From UHGV virus genome UHGV-0087471: a stretch of 22,215 nt of DNA. One strand, 5' to 3'. The notes beneath the pieces are model-generated. The model made no database searches. It was not told the DNA's origin and worked only from the letters and a program-made list of their open reading frames with translations. The number at the start of each line of letters is the position of its first letter. The stretch's first letter is position 1. The position numbers and the translations under genes were made by a program. Shown here one piece after another: positions 15,386-21,905 of the stretch. This DNA comes from a virus.

Positions 15386-15678
15386 GAAGAATTTTTATGA
15401 TAATTATTGTTTGCTCATACTGTAAACAAGTTGTGCAGTATATCTACATCTGATGCGCCGCGCGATAAATAAGCCGCAATCCGTGAGATAAATGGACACA
15501 GTGCGGCTTTTCAGATACGGAAAAGGAATTACAGATTATCAGTCGTAAGCAACCCACGCTTACTGGCAAGGATGGTTTACAATGCTGAAAGCGCCTCCCG
15601 GCAATACCGCCAATCATCACTCAAACAGAAAAAATTATTGCTCATGGTTCACTCCGGTAATGAATCGTTTTACAGGCG

Positions 15679-16272
15679 TCATTCGGTCATGGAAAGATTG
15701 CTGATTTCGGTAATCCCGGCAATTTCCTCGCTGACGGATTTCAGTTCGATTTCCAGCTTGGTGCGTTCGTTGACCAGCGCAGCTACGGTCTTACGGCGGT
15801 CTGCCAGTGACGGAAGGTTGTCATTGCCCCACGCCACGCTTTTATCCTTTTTGAGCGCTTCGGTCAGGCGGGTGGCGACCACATCCGGGAAGAAAAAGCA
15901 TAACTTACGCATAACCGTCATCCCGACATCAGCCAGGGGGACATTCCCGCTCAGTCCCACCAGACGGAACAGACCAGAAATATCACCATTCTCATTTTCC
16001 AGATTACCCCAGCGTTCGGCGTTCCCTTCACTGCCGGAACCGTTGCAAAGAGCAAGCTTGAATGACTGATATTCTTCCTGCCCGAATCGCTCAATATATT
16101 CAGGAATAAAGGAACAGTAATCATTAAGCGATAATGGCATATCCTGTAATGTGGTTATTTCACTGTTAATCTCTCCAATTCGGCGGGAGAGCTTTTCTTT
16201 CTGCTCATTCAGGGAGGCAAGATTATTTTTAACGGCGTTCAGTGCTTCGATAAGGGAAATAACAGGTTTCAT
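15679..16272 (-). CDS. Hypothetical coiled-coil protein (197 aa), scaffold-like
   Basis: Start ATG 16272 with GGAG RBS, 1 nt after stop of upstream gene; N- and C-terminal heptad-like segments (LIEALNAVKNNLASLNEQKEKLSRRIGEINSEITTLQ; KTVAALVNERTKLEIELKSVSEEIAGI). Function inferred only from composition. Confidence 0.55.
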   Translation of the reverse strand: MKPVISLIEALNAVKNNLASLNEQKEKLSRRIGEINSEITTLQDMPLSLNDYCSFIPEYIERFGQEEYQSFKLALCNGSGSEGNAERWGNLENENGDISGLFRLVGLSGNVPLADVGMTVMRKLCFFFPDVVATRLTEALKKDKSVAWGNDNLPSLADRRKTVAALVNERTKLEIELKSVSEEIAGITEISNLSMTE

Positions 16273-16273
16273 T

Positions 16274-16888
16274 TTAATAACTCCAGATGAAAGGCGTGGT
16301 GAGGGCGAGCGCTTCAGAATAGGAGACATTGCAGGCTGCACTTACGTCCTTTATTAAAAGGTGCTGTGCTGCCCTCTGACTGTCTGCTATGCCGTCAAAC
16401 TCTGAAAAATGAACGTGTGATTCATTGTGATAAAAGCAAACCGGGTAACAGCTTTCCATAAATTCTACCTGCGCCAGTCCCTTTACTGCTGGAGGCTGTG
16501 AGCCGAGAAAACCGATATGCTGAAGATACCAGGCACCGATTCCTGCCGGGTTGTTCGCTTCGCCGGGTCTATAAAATGCCGCAGACACTTTCCTGTAACG
16601 CCCTGCGCGTACCAGTCCCAGCAGGGTTTCATCAGGCTTAACCAGCGCGAAAAGCCTGCCGTTTTTACTTATCAGCCCAGTTGTTTCACCATAAGATGGG
16701 CTGTTGCTGGCCGGATGTCCAATACACAGCGGCGCACCATAACCCGCACGATGATAGCCGTTATAGGCTGCCGCCATGTTGTCGATATCCTCGTCGGAAA
16801 AGGCAATTTCCTGCCCAGCCATCGTGATATGCGTTCCCGCCCGGAATATCTCGATAGTTTTCCAGTTGCCAATATCGATATCTTTCAT
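16274..16888 (-). CDS. Hypothetical protein (204 aa); weak resemblance to phage prohead proteases (HK97 / Mu gpI-like)
   Basis: Start codon overlaps stop of upstream Mor-like gene. By-eye motif similarity to the satellite's own HK97 protease: His-containing CIGHP, then GLISKNGRLFALVKPDETLLGLV...KVSAAFYR paralleling GTLVLTEDNTGLRFELTPPDTQLG...TGMSFGFR. Unverified. Confidence 0.5.
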   Translation of the reverse strand: MKDIDIGNWKTIEIFRAGTHITMAGQEIAFSDEDIDNMAAAYNGYHRAGYGAPLCIGHPASNSPSYGETTGLISKNGRLFALVKPDETLLGLVRAGRYRKVSAAFYRPGEANNPAGIGAWYLQHIGFLGSQPPAVKGLAQVEFMESCYPVCFYHNESHVHFSEFDGIADSQRAAQHLLIKDVSAACNVSYSEALALTTPFIWSY

Positions 16889-16889
16889 T

Positions 16890-17423
16890 TTAAATTACCC
16901 CATATTTCGCATCGCGCTGTATTTTATTTTTCTTGCGTTCGGCGGCTATAATCTGATAAATACACTGAATGGAACGCTTGTATTTTTTTGATAGTTCAAA
17001 AATAGAGATACCCTGATAAAAATCAGCCAGTATTTTTGAGTTCCTGTCGAAAGTGTTTTTTGATGCGCCCATAGGGATATATATATTCCCCCTGAAAAAT
17101 GTATTCCTGAGACATTCAGTGATGGCAGGAGAAAGTTTTTCGGCTTGCGAACAGAGGTAAGGTATGGTTCCTAATGTCTGCTCAATAGATTCAGTCAGCT
17201 CCTGTAGGAAGCGAACTGCCTTAGGTGCTCTTTCTCGGTGTTCAGCCATATACCCCTGGCAGCCACCAAGGTTATCAGAGATACCCAACACAATATGATT
17301 AGCCGCACTGCAGGACTGTTGCCGTGAATACCCTTTGTTGATCAGAAACACTTCTATAGCATCGCCCATTGCCCCCAAAGTATCGGATGAAGCATACAAT
17401 CCTTCTCTTGTAATCATAATCAC
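16890..17423 (-). CDS. Mor/C-family transcriptional activator-like protein (177 aa)
   Basis: C-terminal region GNIYIPMG...FDRNSKILADFYQGISIFELSKKYKRSIQCIYQIIAAERKK resembles the Mu Mor motif (G.VYIP.G ... DF.G.N..EL...Y......Y.I) with a C-terminal HTH; identification from remembered family signature, not a search. Confidence 0.5.
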   Translation of the reverse strand: MIMITREGLYASSDTLGAMGDAIEVFLINKGYSRQQSCSAANHIVLGISDNLGGCQGYMAEHRERAPKAVRFLQELTESIEQTLGTIPYLCSQAEKLSPAITECLRNTFFRGNIYIPMGASKNTFDRNSKILADFYQGISIFELSKKYKRSIQCIYQIIAAERKKNKIQRDAKYGVI

Positions 17424-17657
17424 ACCTCGTCAACGATAAATATGCGCACATAAAGCCTTTATAAAGCTTTATGAGGTGCATTACTGGTGTCATTCCATGA
17501 TGCACACCACCAACAACCAAAAACGCCTTACAGAGCATTTCAATGTGTGTTATTAATGTGGATTAAGAATATGGTTTTGGGGCGAGAATGTTTTTTAATG
17601 TACTTTAGATATGACGAAGCCCCTCAAAGGAGGGGCGAGGCGGAAAACTATTTATAA

Positions 17658-17936
17658 CTATTCCTTACTCTCCTGATCAAGACGATTACCTATCAGGTTA
17701 ATCATTGCCATTGCATCAGATAGCAGGATACTGTTAACAAGTGCTAAGGGCGTCTGTGTTGATTTATCATCAACGGCAACAGAAAGTTCATCATTCAGGC
17801 GACGAACGGCCTCAAGACGGCTAAAGGCGGCTTCCCATATTTCTGTACTCGGGGCATCAGCATTAACAAACAAAACATCGTAAGACGTTCCCTGAGACTC
17901 ATGAGGACAGGCTATGAAATTAGCAGTAGCTTTCAT
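17658..17936 (-). CDS. Hypothetical acidic protein (92 aa)
   Basis: ORF whose start overlaps the stop of the upstream gene (ATGA at 17933..17936); no recognisable motif. Confidence 0.45.
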   Translation of the reverse strand: MKATANFIACPHESQGTSYDVLFVNADAPSTEIWEAAFSRLEAVRRLNDELSVAVDDKSTQTPLALVNSILLSDAMAMINLIGNRLDQESKE

Positions 17937-18412
17937 TTTGCAGTCCTCCGGTTAATTATAAATTTATTATAAATTTCATAACTTGCGGCATTCAGTCCTG
18001 GACTGTATTTATCTGCCAGTGAACAGGCAATGAATTCTTCAATCGATTTAGTCAGTATATCAAGCTCAGTTGTTCCGGAATAACGCAAGGCCACTCGAAA
18101 TAATTCTCGGCAGTATGTTTTTTTATGGTCAATATTTTGTAACTGCTGTTGCGGTATATCACGACGTTCAAATATATTAACAAATGCATTAAGCGGGAAG
18201 CTATGATTTGCCTGCGGATATTGCTCATAGGAAAACACCACAGTATTACCGTTGCATTCTTTAACAATTGCATTCATACCGCTGTTAATTTCAATATACC
18301 ACTCTCCTATACATGGAGGATTGATAGCTTCGCTCTGTGCCTTGATTAAAGGTAAGCGGATAGTATCCACTTGGTTTGTTGCAACTGAATCGTTAGACTT
18401 GTCGTTAGCCAT
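17933..18412 (-). CDS. Hypothetical protein (159 aa)
   Basis: Start ATG 18412 with AGGA RBS about 9 nt upstream (longest ORF extends to 18430); first gene of the minus-strand cluster; no recognisable motif. Confidence 0.45.
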   Translation of the reverse strand: MANDKSNDSVATNQVDTIRLPLIKAQSEAINPPCIGEWYIEINSGMNAIVKECNGNTVVFSYEQYPQANHSFPLNAFVNIFERRDIPQQQLQNIDHKKTYCRELFRVALRYSGTTELDILTKSIEEFIACSLADKYSPGLNAASYEIYNKFIINRRTAK

Positions 18413-18600
18413 GACTGTTATCCTACACATAACGGTTTTTGGTTAGGCCATAGCAAGTGCTCGCAACATTTGTTATGGCCGTTTCTTTGGCCCTTTCCCT
18501 GTGATAAGGTATAGACCTAACAAGTAAACACTAAGCCATAGGTCTATACATGTCAACTATCTTGAGAGATAAAAGCCAAAAAGGGGCAGGGAAAGCCCCC

Positions 18601-18741
18601 ATGTTTAACGTTAGAATATCGCCAGATTTGAAAGAACAGTTTGAAATACAAGCAAAAAAAGAAGGTGTTAGCTTGGGAAACTGGCTCAAGGAACTTGGCA
18701 GGGCGGAACTAAAACGTAAGGGGATCGAGCCGAAAGGGTGA
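18601..18741 (+). CDS. Small ribbon-helix-helix (Arc/MetJ/CopG-like) regulator (46 aa)
   Basis: MFNVRISPDLKEQFEIQAKKEGVSLGNWLKELGRAEL fits a beta-strand/helix/Gly/helix RHH pattern; divergent from the minus-strand cluster; ATG 18601 preferred (GGGA upstream) over ORF start 18550. Confidence 0.4.
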   Translation: MFNVRISPDLKEQFEIQAKKEGVSLGNWLKELGRAELKRKGIEPKG

Positions 18742-18767
18742 TGTTTTAGTCTCCCTGTGTTTGATTA

Positions 18768-19601
18768 AAAGCGAAATCGCTTTCACATTTAAAGTTCAAG
18801 ATAGCCAATGCCATCACCAAAGCGGACAGCGCTGTCCGCTTTTCATCAGTAAAAACCACATATTTACGCCAAAACGCTCAACGTTGAGCGCTACGTACCC
18901 CGGCAAAAGCGCAAGCGTCTGCGCTTTTGGTAACAAGCAATCAGCATTTAAATGCGGACAACGTTGACCGTTTTGAGGAATCAATGTCGGCTGAGCAAAA
19001 ACGACAACGTTGTCGTTTTTAAAACGGCAAGCGCTTACCGTTTCAGATTATCGAGGCGGTAAGAGTTTACCGTTTGGTGTCAATTATGTTCAATAAGCGA
19101 AAACGTTTTCGCATTTTCTCACCTAACGCGGCAAACCTTCTTTGTCCTAGATGGAAAAACGACAGCGCTGTCGTTTCTAATCCGGGGTTCCAAACCGCTC
19201 AGCGCTGAGCGGTTCTGTGGCTTTCTTACAATCCAAATCCGCCAACGTTGGCAGATTTGCAAATATCACATATGATTGATGGTCCCGAATCACAAATGTC
19301 CCAGCGCGGGGATATTTCAAGTAGTTCAATCATTTCATGCGCTGGCAGTCATCTCCAAAACTGCGAACGCCTGCCCTTTCAGTACAGTTTGGTAATATAT
19401 ATTGGTAAGCTTTACTTGTAGAAATATAAAACTCCAAAAGCGCCAGCGCTGGCGCTTTGTAAGGCCAGCAATATCATTCCCAGCGCTGGAATACTAAAAG
19501 GCGGATTCCTGCATCTTAATTTGAGATGGAATCTCATGGCAATCCAGTGTTAACGTAGGGTTTTAGCCAGTACTCACGACTTGAATATGCCAGCGCTGGC
19601 A
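18768..19601. repeat. Array of about 17 short perfect or near-perfect palindromes (14-24 bp) centred on AGCGCT or AACGTT
   Basis: Perfect palindromes at 18819..18842, 18875..18890, 18997..19020, 19097..19112, 19157..19176, 19193..19214, 19437..19458, 19588..19601; imperfect ones between them; one more of the same family at 21106..21129 beyond the IS903 copy. Confidence 0.6.
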
Positions 19602-19823
19602 CATTTGAAGTCTGGTAACATCAATAATCTAATGACACCTGATGTAATTTTGAACCCTGAACTGGAATCAACCCCAAATTTAATGGCAACAGCTATCAGC
19701 CAGATTACTGATGAACGTGACCTGCTGAACCAATTACTTGACCAAGCACAGATGGCCGATGCATTCGAGCAATTTTCCCGAACGGTTCGGACTTCTAAAC
19801 TGGCTTTTGTGAAGGAAAACAAG

Positions 19824-20880
19824 GGCTTTGTTGAATAAATCAGATTTCGGGTAAGTCTCCCCCGTAGCGGGTTGTGTTTTCAGGCAATACGCACGCTTTC
19901 AGGCATACCTGCTTTCGTCATTTTGTTCAGCGCTCGTACCAGGGCCATAGCCTCTGCAACCTGACCATCGTAGTCACGCAGTGTCAGTGAACCTCCGAAC
20001 AGCTGTTTTACCCGGTACATCGCCGTTTCCGCTATCGAGCGACGGTTATAATCTGTTGTCCATTTCCACCGCGCATTACTCCCGGTCAGCCGCTGATTCG
20101 CAACAGCACGGTTACGGTCTGCATATTCACCGGGCCAGTAACCCGCGCCTTTTCGGGGCGGGATAAGCGCGCTGATTTTCTTACGCCGCAGTTCATCGTG
20201 ACAGAGCCGGGTGTCGTAAGCGCCGTCTGCCGATGCTGCCCTGATTTTTCTGTGAGTCTGCCGGATAAGACCCGGGAAGGCTTCTGAGTCCGTCACATTG
20301 TTCAGCGACAGGTCTGCACAGATGATTTCATGTGTTTTGCTGTCAACTGCCAGATGCAACTTTCGCCATATACGACGGCGTTCTTTGCCGTGTTTTTTGA
20401 CTTTCCATTCGCCTTCACCAAAGACCTTCAGCCCGGTGGAATCAATCACCAGATGCGCGATTTCACCTCGGGTGAACGTTTTGAAACTGACATTAACCGA
20501 CTTTGCGCGCTTGCTGACACTGGTGTAATCCGGGCAGCGCAACGGAACATTCATCAGTGTAAAAATGGAATCAATAAAACCCTGTGCAGCCCGCAGGGTC
20601 AACCTGAACACGCGTTTAATGACCAGAACGGTGGTGATGGCGAGATCAGAATAGCGCTGAGGTCTTCCCCGTGATGAAGGCGTTGCCGACTCATACCAGG
20701 CCTGAATAGCTTCATCATCCAGCCAGAAAGTTATGGAGCCACGGTTGATGAGGGCTTTATTGTAGGTGGGCCAGTTGGTGATTTTGAACTTTTGCTTTGC
20801 CACGGAACGGTCTGCGTTGTCGGGAAGATGCGTGATCTGATCCTTCAACTCAGCAAAAGTTCGATTTATTCAACAAAGCC
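19824..20880 (-). mobile_element. IS903 (IS5 family), complete 1057-bp copy
   Basis: 18-bp terminal inverted repeats GGCTTTGTTGAATAAATC at 19824..19841 and 20863..20880; ends match remembered IS903 sequence; 9-bp direct target duplication GAAAACAAG at 19815..19823 and 20881..20889. Confidence 0.92.
19880..20803 (-). CDS. IS903 transposase (DDE, IS5 family; 307 aa if started at GTG 20803)
   Basis: Translation matches IS903 transposase as I recall it (VAKQKFKITNW...). The longest ORF extends 15 codons further to 20848; the GTG start is chosen to match the commonly annotated 307-aa product. Confidence 0.85.
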   Translation of the reverse strand: MAKQKFKITNWPTYNKALINRGSITFWLDDEAIQAWYESATPSSRGRPQRYSDLAITTVLVIKRVFRLTLRAAQGFIDSIFTLMNVPLRCPDYTSVSKRAKSVNVSFKTFTRGEIAHLVIDSTGLKVFGEGEWKVKKHGKERRRIWRKLHLAVDSKTHEIICADLSLNNVTDSEAFPGLIRQTHRKIRAASADGAYDTRLCHDELRRKKISALIPPRKGAGYWPGEYADRNRAVANQRLTGSNARWKWTTDYNRRSIAETAMYRVKQLFGGSLTLRDYDGQVAEAMALVRALNKMTKAGMPESVRIA

Positions 20881-21876
20881 GAAAACAAGCTGTATCGCAA
20901 TCTAAAGGGTAAGAAGACACCGAACGGTTCGGAGTTTTCGGGTACATGGGATGAATTTTGTAATGTTCTTGGAATATCCGTTGATAAGGCAGATTTGGAT
21001 ATTGCCAACCTAAGAACCTTCGGCGAAAAAGCCCTCGAATCCATGCCTCGTATGGGGAGCGGCTATCGTGAACTTCGTCAGTTCCGCCGACTACAAGACT
21101 ATCAGAAAAGCGCCAACGTTGGCGCTTTTGGGAAAAGCCAAACAACCCTGCTATTCCGCTTCATGAAACACTTGAGGCATCACAAAACCAAATAGCATTA
21201 CACCAGTAACAGATCATTTCTCAGTTCGGAGATGGCCTGCTGTTTGATCTGTTGTGTAACGAAGAAAAAATTCGCAGTCATTTATCACGCAGCGCTGAAG
21301 AAATGCTGGAAGCTGGACAAGCGCTGGTTGTATCGCGTAATTGTTTGCTGCATGAAGAGTGGCTAAATTTTCTTTCCCCTTTAGATTTAGAGTGCTGTGT
21401 TGCTCAACGCATAGCACAAGCAGCCGTATAATTTTCAAATGTGTCGATGTCGACGTATTTGATCCATACTGTTGGCACCAAATTTAAATCATAGATGCGG
21501 GGCTGCGCGATATTGAGATTAAATCTGTCACAAAAATATTGGCCTGCGGCACGCGGATACTGGGAGCAAAGGAAGTTCGGGTGTGATAACCCAGACTGCC
21601 ATCACGTAAAGTACCTGACTAACTCATGCGGAATCATCCTTTTTGTTATGAACCCTGTTTCAGCAAACTCGATTCTAAGTTGCCAGGAAGGATGATTTTA
21701 ATGTCCCACTTATCTTTCATATAGCGGAAAAGAATTTCAGTTCTGTTCACCAGATCCCACGTTATCCCACTCCAATTCGTTATTTATCTCACGGATCACC
21801 ATTCATTTATCTCACGTCCCTTCATACATCGAGACAAGTTACGGACTTATACTTCTAAAGTACTCCATACATATCA

Positions 21877-21905
21877 CAAAATAAAAAGGCCGGCTAAACC
21901 GACCT
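21877..21905 (-). terminator. Intrinsic terminator of infA
   Basis: On minus strand GGUCGG-UUUAG-CCGGCC hairpin followed by UUUUUAUUUU, about 45 nt downstream of the infA stop. Confidence 0.5.

Follow-up and report, generated by a model that had tools for sequence, protein, structure and literature searches.

What was lost when an insertion sequence (IS) of the IS903 group entered a gene in the DNA analysed here, and what kind of element carried that gene? The window, by which we mean the whole 22,215-nucleotide stretch catalogued as virus genome UHGV-0087471, is E. coli chromosome running from hcr through clpA and serW, followed by an insert and then by infA. Taking all parts of the answer together, we consider it probable that IS903 struck a truncated early-protein gene of a non-autonomous Mu-like element, that this element is moved by a helper phage, and that the product of the gene binds sites within its own coding sequence. 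The features at the point of insertion are as follows.

19581..19823, plus strand: 5' part of the split gene, codons 1-81, encoding the long N-terminal helix only; TTG at 19581, probable ATG start at 19587
19815..19823: left copy of the 9-bp IS903 target duplication, GAAAACAAG
19824..20880, minus strand: IS903-group element of 1,057 bp with 18-bp inverted repeats; transposase at 19880-20803/20848
20881..20889: right copy of the 9-bp IS903 target duplication, GAAAACAAG
20890..21195, plus strand: 3' part of the split gene, codons 82-182 plus stop

Positions 19824-20880 hold a 1,057-bp IS with GGCTTTGTTGAATAAATC inverted at both ends, and the IS is flanked directly by GAAAACAAG, a perfect 9-bp target duplication of which the window contains these 2 copies only. 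The ORF (open reading frame) inside the IS extends over 19880-20848 of the minus strand, with a 307-amino acid version at 19880-20803, and scores 351.9 bits against the IS5-family transposase model NF033579 (cutoff 140). The IS differs from IS102 of pSC101 by 62 mismatches and 0 gaps (94.1% identity); with copies labelled IS903B it shares approximately 94% identity, and Klebsiella plasmids carry copies that match it at 100%. By these matches it belongs to the IS903 group of the IS5 family, an assignment made at the level of the group (IS903/IS102/IS903B). An earlier, sequence-only reading of this locus had described an IS903-type insertion with an intact 9-bp duplication, which the two GAAAACAAG copies and the terminal repeats bear out. 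It had also joined the two flanking ORFs into one frame; with the IS and one repeat removed, 19581-19823 and 20890-21195 do form 549 nt, or 182 codons plus a stop. The event itself is ordinary, textbook IS903 behaviour.

Strains carrying the uninterrupted ORF, which that reading had proposed as a check, do exist. The allele P0001 (180 amino acids), present on 121 public contigs, matches the reconstructed product at 100% from the third codon of the latter onwards, and its surrounding DNA likewise equals this window at 100% when the IS and one repeat are taken out. In Pseudomonas phage JBD18, Klebsiella and Enterobacter, full-length homologues cross the insertion point in frame, so the two halves share a frame in related genomes as well as in identical alleles. 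Complete E. coli genomes contained the intact site in 2 cases and the split site in 21, and 1,428 database blocks carried the split form versus 230 with the intact form. Because IS-free and IS-bearing copies of the element show 0 substitutions over 5,311 bp, the insertion is recent, as had been supposed.

The reconstructed protein had been called unassigned, a description that does not hold. It corresponds to the N-terminal ~156 amino acids of phrog_4623 (E 1.1e-57), with the match covering only profile positions 11-151 of 329. Full-length homologues are 309-318 amino acids long and 59-78% identical to the split-gene product, and their genes lie just upstream of transposase genes: in JBD18 the two are immediate neighbours, and in L013 and L003 (Klebsiella plasmid) a single small ORF intervenes. 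Homology ends at residue 156 in both protein and DNA and is followed by 24 unrelated residues, with the C-terminal half and its coiled coil absent. The position of this break is marked by a second kind of symmetry.

21106..21129: 24-bp palindrome, AAAAGCGCCAAC followed by GTTGGCGCTTTT; truncation junction

The break falls inside the left arm of the palindrome, after AAAAGCGCC and 3 nt short of the centre, AAAAGCGCC being ancestral coding sequence. Since homology stops at residue 156 within the palindrome at 21106-21129, the gene was already half-length before IS903 arrived. Two further truncated alleles, P0003 (79% identical) and P0002 (87%), have the same odd C-terminal tail and intact frames. 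On these alignments, the split gene is a naturally shortened version of an early protein of ~310 amino acids from B3/BcepMu-type transposable phages that has kept the N-terminal domain. Most early-operon ORFs of these phages lack an assignment (Fc02 transcriptome paper, PMC9936078). The name DUF3102, which databases attach to some relatives, was considered and dropped; there is no Pfam match, and hhalign against a neighbouring DUF3102-type protein returned a probability of 0.7%.

The insert that carries this gene is bounded by duplications of its own.

15445..15450: left 6-bp target duplication of the host element, TACATC
15451..21824: transposase-less Mu-like element, 5,311 bp, or 6,374 bp once IS903 and its duplication are included
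21825..21830: right 6-bp target duplication of the host element, TACATC

The limits 15451 and 21824 were fixed by comparing copies in other genomes. The termini are of the TG...CA type (5'-TGATGCGCCGCGCGATAAAT ... ATCTCACGTCCCTTCA-3', in short TGATGCGCC...CCCTTCA), and CGTGAGATAAAT-type repeats occur inverted at similar offsets from both ends. In 5,157 of 5,426 E. coli genomes the serW-infA site is empty with a single TACATC, and five other sites carry identical IS-free copies (100%), every one flanked by a 6-bp duplication of its own: nadC/ppdD, caiD/caiC, lambda-like tail genes and two other prophage positions. Altogether, identical copies occupy at least 7 unrelated sites. Duplications of 6 bp were counted at 8 sites for this element and at 1 site each for a related element (L005) and for a full-length prophage (L017). 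The latter is a 38-kb Mu-like prophage of E. coli CUVET21-PYO5, located inside folM with the 6-bp duplication CCCTCT; its first 20 nt on the left are identical to those of the element, and its last 186 nt on the right are ~90% identical. L017 encodes a 597-amino acid rve-type transposase and a 388-amino acid ATPase. Annotation, Pfam, PHROG and NCBIfam searches revealed no rve or AAA gene within 15451-21824, and because these are missing there though both occur in L017, the element is non-autonomous. The host is thus a discrete, natural, non-autonomous mini-Mu-like element. The large match count of one window search is not a feature of the element, as it was due to the chromosomal flank at 21831-21900, which is in every E. 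coli genome.

Identical copies in three genomes (L008, L009, accession LR882997.1, and L010) lie within resident lambdoid prophages, where one of them separates tail genes L and M, so that other phages too are disrupted by the element.

What did the interrupted gene encode besides a protein? Within its frame lie two copies of a short palindrome.

19778..19790: operator-like palindrome 1, CCGAAC-G-GTTCGG, encoding S-R-T-V-R
20920..20932: operator-like palindrome 2, CCGAAC-G-GTTCGG, encoding P-N-G-S

The sequence-only reading had located the 13-bp palindrome at 20920-20932 and the 24-mer at 21106-21129 correctly, missed the copy at 19778-19790, and classed both types together as palindromes of an island. 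They are different classes: the 13-mer is an ancestral part of the gene and co-varies with the protein, while the 24-mer belongs to an element-specific array described below. The two copies of CCGAACGGTTCGG (19778-19790 and 20920-20932) are 76 bp apart once the IS is subtracted, and they are read in different frames.

We surveyed the pair at 72 loci, one per species, from Gamma- and Betaproteobacteria. Both palindromes are perfect, mutually identical and 76 bp apart at 49 of the 72; a further 9 have a nearly perfect pair, 8 have a 12-bp first site without the central base, and 6 show no clear pair. The pair is therefore conserved in 66/72 loci, always with a spacing of 76, and just 1 extra pair of this kind was found in 457 kb. 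The core AC-N-GT is constant, but the four outer bases occur in 16 combinations and change jointly in both arms and in both copies, with the encoded residues fitting the type of site (RTVR, QTVW, KTVL or VTVT at site 1; PNGS, PNGL, QDGL or GNGY at site 2). This pattern indicates that the palindrome pair is under strong selection at the DNA level. At seven Betaproteobacterial and other loci (L059, L065, L080, L084, L085, L087 and L094) the first palindrome is a 12-mer, such as CCAAACGTTTGG, and the second stays at 13 bp. At another locus (L088, Gilliamella sp. WF3-4, 1064-1626), two palindrome pairs of different specificity, GCGAAC and CCAAAC, lie ~470 bp apart, which suggests two adjacent or rearranged copies of the gene.

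Column-wise adjusted mutual information (AMI) with palindrome type was computed for six protein families: the split-gene protein, transposase A, ATPase B, a 103-amino acid helix-turn-helix protein, an 84-amino acid protein and a 140-amino acid repressor. The 16 top-scoring columns are all in the split-gene protein. Residues encoded by the palindromes themselves reach an AMI of 0.48-0.78. Outside this site-encoded part, residues 103-110 (I-S-V-D-K-A-D-L in L017 numbering) score 0.41-0.63, apart from residue 108 (0.27) and the near-invariant residue 104 (0.12). The variable residues 90-102, which are nearer to site 2, stay at 0.22 or less, a valley that separates the 103-110 peak from the site-encoded residues. 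The other five candidate binders were set aside, as the best column in any of them has an AMI of 0.24. A whole-protein nearest-neighbour test of palindrome type against 25 neighbouring families, in which agreement was low for nearly all and 21/59 for the split gene itself, was replaced by this column-wise analysis.

20947..21012, plus strand: region coding for the predicted helix-turn-helix, with the specificity-linked I-S-V-D-K-A-D-L at 20974-20997

In the AlphaFold2 model, residues 103-110 open the second helix of a helix-turn-helix; the predicted local distance difference test score (pLDDT) is ~87-90 there and 80-90 over residues 60-120. Individual bases can be paired with individual residues of this helix. 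When the fourth base is A, residue 110 is L, M, I or Q, when it is C the residue is R, and when it is G the residue is E, a three-way rule that fits all 16 types. G at the third base goes with D at 106 (5/5 types), and G at the first base with R at 105 (4/5 types). As judged from the aligned residues, this mapping is a chemically reasonable one. The truncated alleles, by the same comparison, follow the site and helix code of the full-length loci: P0001 has CCGAAC together with ISVDKADL, P0003 has CCAAAC together with ISDEKANQ, and P0002, whose PHGA peptide implies CCGCAC, carries RSVDQVDR. From the covariation and the structural model, the gene's own product most likely binds the two sites inside its own gene. 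Going by their position, the site pair could serve in autoregulation, as a roadblock before the transposase genes, or as an architectural site for transposition.

IS903 entered after codon 81, so that palindrome 1 precedes it while palindrome 2 and the helix-turn-helix region follow it. A stub of 83 amino acids is annotated, which consists of the N-terminal helix only, and the palindromes, 76 bp apart before the IS, are now separated by 1,142 bp. It had been claimed that the insertion inactivated an island gene; the loss of the protein stands, and the island label gives way to a transposase-less Mu-like element that stayed mobile. Given the predicted fold and the code, what IS903 destroyed was probably an autoregulatory DNA-binding protein. 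An identical 6,374-bp composite is present between mgsA and helD with a new duplication, GTTATC, and another lies inside the BREX-1 gene brxC of E. coli SK0832 (L095, NZ_AP046542.1 93903-100276) with the duplication CATACT; SK0832 has two IS-bearing copies. These new sites indicate that the composite kept moving after the IS903 hit. Because it transposed again afterwards, the element needs neither an intact gene nor the 76-bp spacing in cis. In SK0832, brxC is annotated as two pseudogene pieces.

Each part of this account has a competitor. The sequence-only reading had spoken of an island with a neighbouring operon, and a conventional genomic island, integrated by a site-specific recombinase at the tRNA-Ser gene serW, would explain why the insert lies 137 bp from a known island hot spot. 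Neither an integrase nor a tRNA-derived direct repeat was found at the insert, however; it is bounded by TG..CA and a 6-bp repeat of spacer sequence, further copies of the element occupy many unrelated non-tRNA sites, and genomes with the empty site are the rule. The tRNA-island reading was rejected on these grounds, and we give it practically no credence. The later movement could be disputed instead, if the IS-bearing copies at mgsA/helD and in brxC had arisen by gene conversion from the serW-infA copy into earlier IS-free copies. Genomes with two copies do exist (two genomes have 3-4 matching places), and the copies are identical, which makes recombination between them possible. Conversion nevertheless requires a prior IS-free copy at both sites, and none was seen there among the places listed, whereas a second, identical copy flanked by a fresh 6-bp duplication is just what replicative Mu-like transposition predicts; we regard gene conversion as very improbable.

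The gene and its sites invite two further objections. The split ORF could have been a dead remnant before IS903 reached it, truncated by an old rearrangement, with the IS doing neutral damage to junk in a decaying prophage fragment. Of ~310 homologous residues it retains just ~156, with 24 unrelated ones behind them; other gene fragments lie in the element's right arm, the element transposed after IS903 hit, and the split form is the commoner one among the database blocks. Yet the same truncated architecture and tail recur in alleles 79-87% identical that represent three palindrome specificities, and these alleles, unlike a pseudogene, keep open frames, perfect palindromes and matching helix residues, while element families 86-88% identical share the gene order; a dead remnant seems to us unlikely, although not far-fetched. 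The palindromes, for their part, might act as hairpins in RNA or single-stranded DNA (an attenuator, a terminator, or a recognition structure for transposition or packaging) rather than as duplex operators for the gene's own protein. Palindrome 2 lies in a longer symmetric context of A-tract and T-tract and was picked up as terminator-like, eight loci tolerate the loss of the central base of palindrome 1, and the element also has an array of hairpin-like palindromes. But independent stems need no identical arms, and the two copies change together through 16 variants; the stems would be 5-6 bp only; and the variable bases track predicted recognition-helix residues in pairings of the Arg-G, Glu-C and Gln-A type. 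We judge hairpins decidedly unlikely.

Several observations weigh against binding of its own sites by the protein, against a role for the gene, and against a helper. The AlphaFold2 model is mediocre overall, with a mean pLDDT of 65 and a predicted template modelling score of 0.40, and Foldseek against the PDB gave no match below E = 3. For the reconstructed protein, nothing was found in Pfam (E up to 1, including DUF3102), NCBIfam or PDB sequence searches. The helix-turn-helix codons are 45-70 nt from palindrome 2 and the covariation statistic ignores shared ancestry; part of the signal thus stems from inheritance within a single recombination block. The eight 12-bp first palindromes without a central base would be poorly tolerated by a rigid dimer and suit a hairpin. 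Being half-length, and not required for the element to move, the gene could be dispensable cargo. No helper phage of a close type was resident in any carrier genome examined, and a transposase at least 89% identical was present in 4 of 5,426 complete genomes, none of them a carrier.

Weighing these points, we still favour the insertion of IS903 into a regulatory gene of a helper-dependent element, and we envisage the following course. A non-autonomous Mu-like element transposed into the serW-infA spacer with a 6-bp duplication. From the shared termini, we presume that it is mobilised in trans by the A and B transposition proteins of a related transposable phage of 38 kb. An IS903-group element entered the 180-amino acid gene at codon 81/82 with a 9-bp duplication. 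The N-terminal-domain protein most likely binds, as a dimer, the two 13-bp palindromes NNNNAC-N-GTNNNN, 76 bp apart in its own gene, a pair that would be autoregulatory or architectural and that lies just upstream of the place taken by the transposase genes in complete phages. IS903, between the palindromes and ahead of the helix-turn-helix, both abolishes the protein and separates the sites.

A more far-reaching possibility, which we raise tentatively and think may well not be right, is that the elements of 5.3-7.6 kb are true satellites of transposable Mu-like phages and constitute an undescribed satellite type. The helper's transposase would move them, and a copy of the helper's early protein reduced to its binding domain, matched to the helper's intragenic operator pair, would sense or subvert the helper. 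The protein and its operators would then form a naturally reprogrammable recognition module with 16 specificities, in which about 3 helix residues read the variable bases and the gene encodes its own sites.

The IS903 hit alone is routine, and its use is that of a natural knockout, in which movement took place without an intact gene or the 76-bp operator spacing. The new part is the context of the insertion, a natural mini-Mu-like element of the 6-bp lineage with diverged genes of its own, the IS903 event being of a known kind. This transposase-less element is actively moving in E. coli ST131-type genomes, where it hits the BREX defence gene brxC and resident prophages. It also points to an uncharacterised early protein conserved in transposable phages of Gamma- and Betaproteobacteria, whose specificity appears to co-evolve with two sites in its own gene; this provides a protein-DNA recognition code that can be tested directly, as well as a candidate point of control over phage transposition.

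The remaining genes of the element are arranged around the split gene as follows.

15679..16272, minus strand: coiled-coil protein, 197 amino acids, conserved across the element family, no function assigned
16274..16888, minus strand: head-maturation-protease-domain-like protein, 204 amino acids (phrog_976, E 1.5e-42)
16890..17417, minus strand: Mor-family transcription activator, 175 amino acids (PF08765, 56.5 bits, cutoff 24.9)
17658..18412, minus strand: two small genes, 92 and 159 amino acids, no function assigned
18550..18741, plus strand: ribbon-helix-helix (HicB/Arc-like) protein, 63 amino acids, first gene of the rightward unit (PF05534 E 1.3e-6; phrog_228 Arc-like repressor)
18819..19601: array of perfect palindromes with the core CA(A/G)CG(C/T)TG, often within AAA...TTT, between the ribbon-helix-helix gene and the split gene
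21252..21695, plus strand: gene fragments of the right arm, a 59-amino acid piece matching phrog_1748 and a 66-amino acid piece

The protease-like protein is 39% identical to the N-terminal 160 amino acids of the L017 protease and lacks the C-terminal part, and the Mor protein is 24% identical to the L017 version. Relatives of 7.6 kb at other sites have the same type of ends and a 6-bp duplication, and add an 827-amino acid tape-measure-like gene; by analogy with known satellites, the protease-like, coiled-coil and tape-measure-like genes (15679-16888 in the window, 3279-7003 in L005) could serve in particle remodelling. Gene order is the same in lineages 86-88% identical (L004, L005, L006 and L016). 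One of these (L004, E. hormaechei plasmid pFJMB80062_2, 200-6957) has a full-length 318-amino acid version of the gene and no palindrome array; it sits within an IncFIB plasmid, with exonuclease and intein-RecA genes as neighbours. In the right arm, the 59-amino acid ORF resembles the helix-turn-helix region of phrog_1748, and the 66-amino acid piece is annotated as an IS91-type transposase zinc-binding domain; these fragments are probably debris of older rearrangements.

The array at 18819-19601 contains 10 perfect palindromes of at least 12 bp versus 0.28 expected and 7 of at least 16 bp versus 0.014 expected, and the 24-mer at 21106-21129 is of the same type. It recurs in related elements (9004-9619 in L005/L006, 2993-3628 in L016), was absent from the full-length phages compared, and found no match in the phage collection. 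Related elements differ in the palindrome centres, which alternate between AACGTT and AGCGCT through paired symmetric substitutions; forms altered on one side only also occur, and entire palindromes of 23 bp are present in some relatives and missing from others. The array may consist of sites to which the ribbon-helix-helix protein binds, or of hairpins. Just upstream of the ribbon-helix-helix gene, a hairpin with a 14-bp stem lies at 18405-18481 on the minus strand, where an Rfam scan of the element gave its sole match, a sub-threshold one to R1162 antisense RNA, a plasmid antisense RNA (31.7 bits vs a gathering score of 55). Promoter and terminator scans of the element found no enrichment over shuffles.

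Literature searches returned no description of such elements, of the protein's function or of paired intragenic palindromes, and none of a satellite of transposable phages or a natural mini-Mu element; nothing relevant appeared under the RefSeq protein accessions. Comparison with characterised systems places the parts more clearly. The IS has the 1,057-bp length, 18-bp ends, 9-bp duplication and single DDE transposase of ~307 amino acids of IS903, IS102 and IS903B, with no substantial difference. Its host resembles laboratory mini-Mu, in which Mu ends without A and B are moved by a helper Mu, in having both phage ends, no transposase, a target duplication and many sites, and in staying mobile with extra DNA (IS903) inside. 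It differs in being natural, in its B3/BcepMu-like ends and 6-bp duplications, compared with the 5-bp duplication of Mu, and in carrying conserved genes of its own (Mor, protease-like, coiled-coil, ribbon-helix-helix and the truncated regulator) that are 24-39% identical to those of the helper-type phage. With phage satellites such as P4, PICI/SaPI and PLE, the element shares small size, the lack of a full structural module, spread in helper-free genomes, diverged regulators and capsid-assembly-like genes, and cis sites that match those of the helper. Unlike them it has no integrase or replication module, and its movement would rely on the helper's transposase.

The split-gene protein has no detectable similarity to the Mu repressor, Ner, MuA domain I-alpha or ParB. 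The arrangement it belongs to nevertheless recalls the Mu operator/enhancer (O1-O2/IAS) and genes with their own sites, such as parS inside parB, in its symmetric early-region sites near transposase genes, its phage-specific and here predicted helix-turn-helix protein, and a specificity that has diverged among relatives. It differs from these systems in that the putative binder's own coding sequence contains the sites, which are read in two frames, keep a strict spacing of 76 bp and occur in 16 variants.

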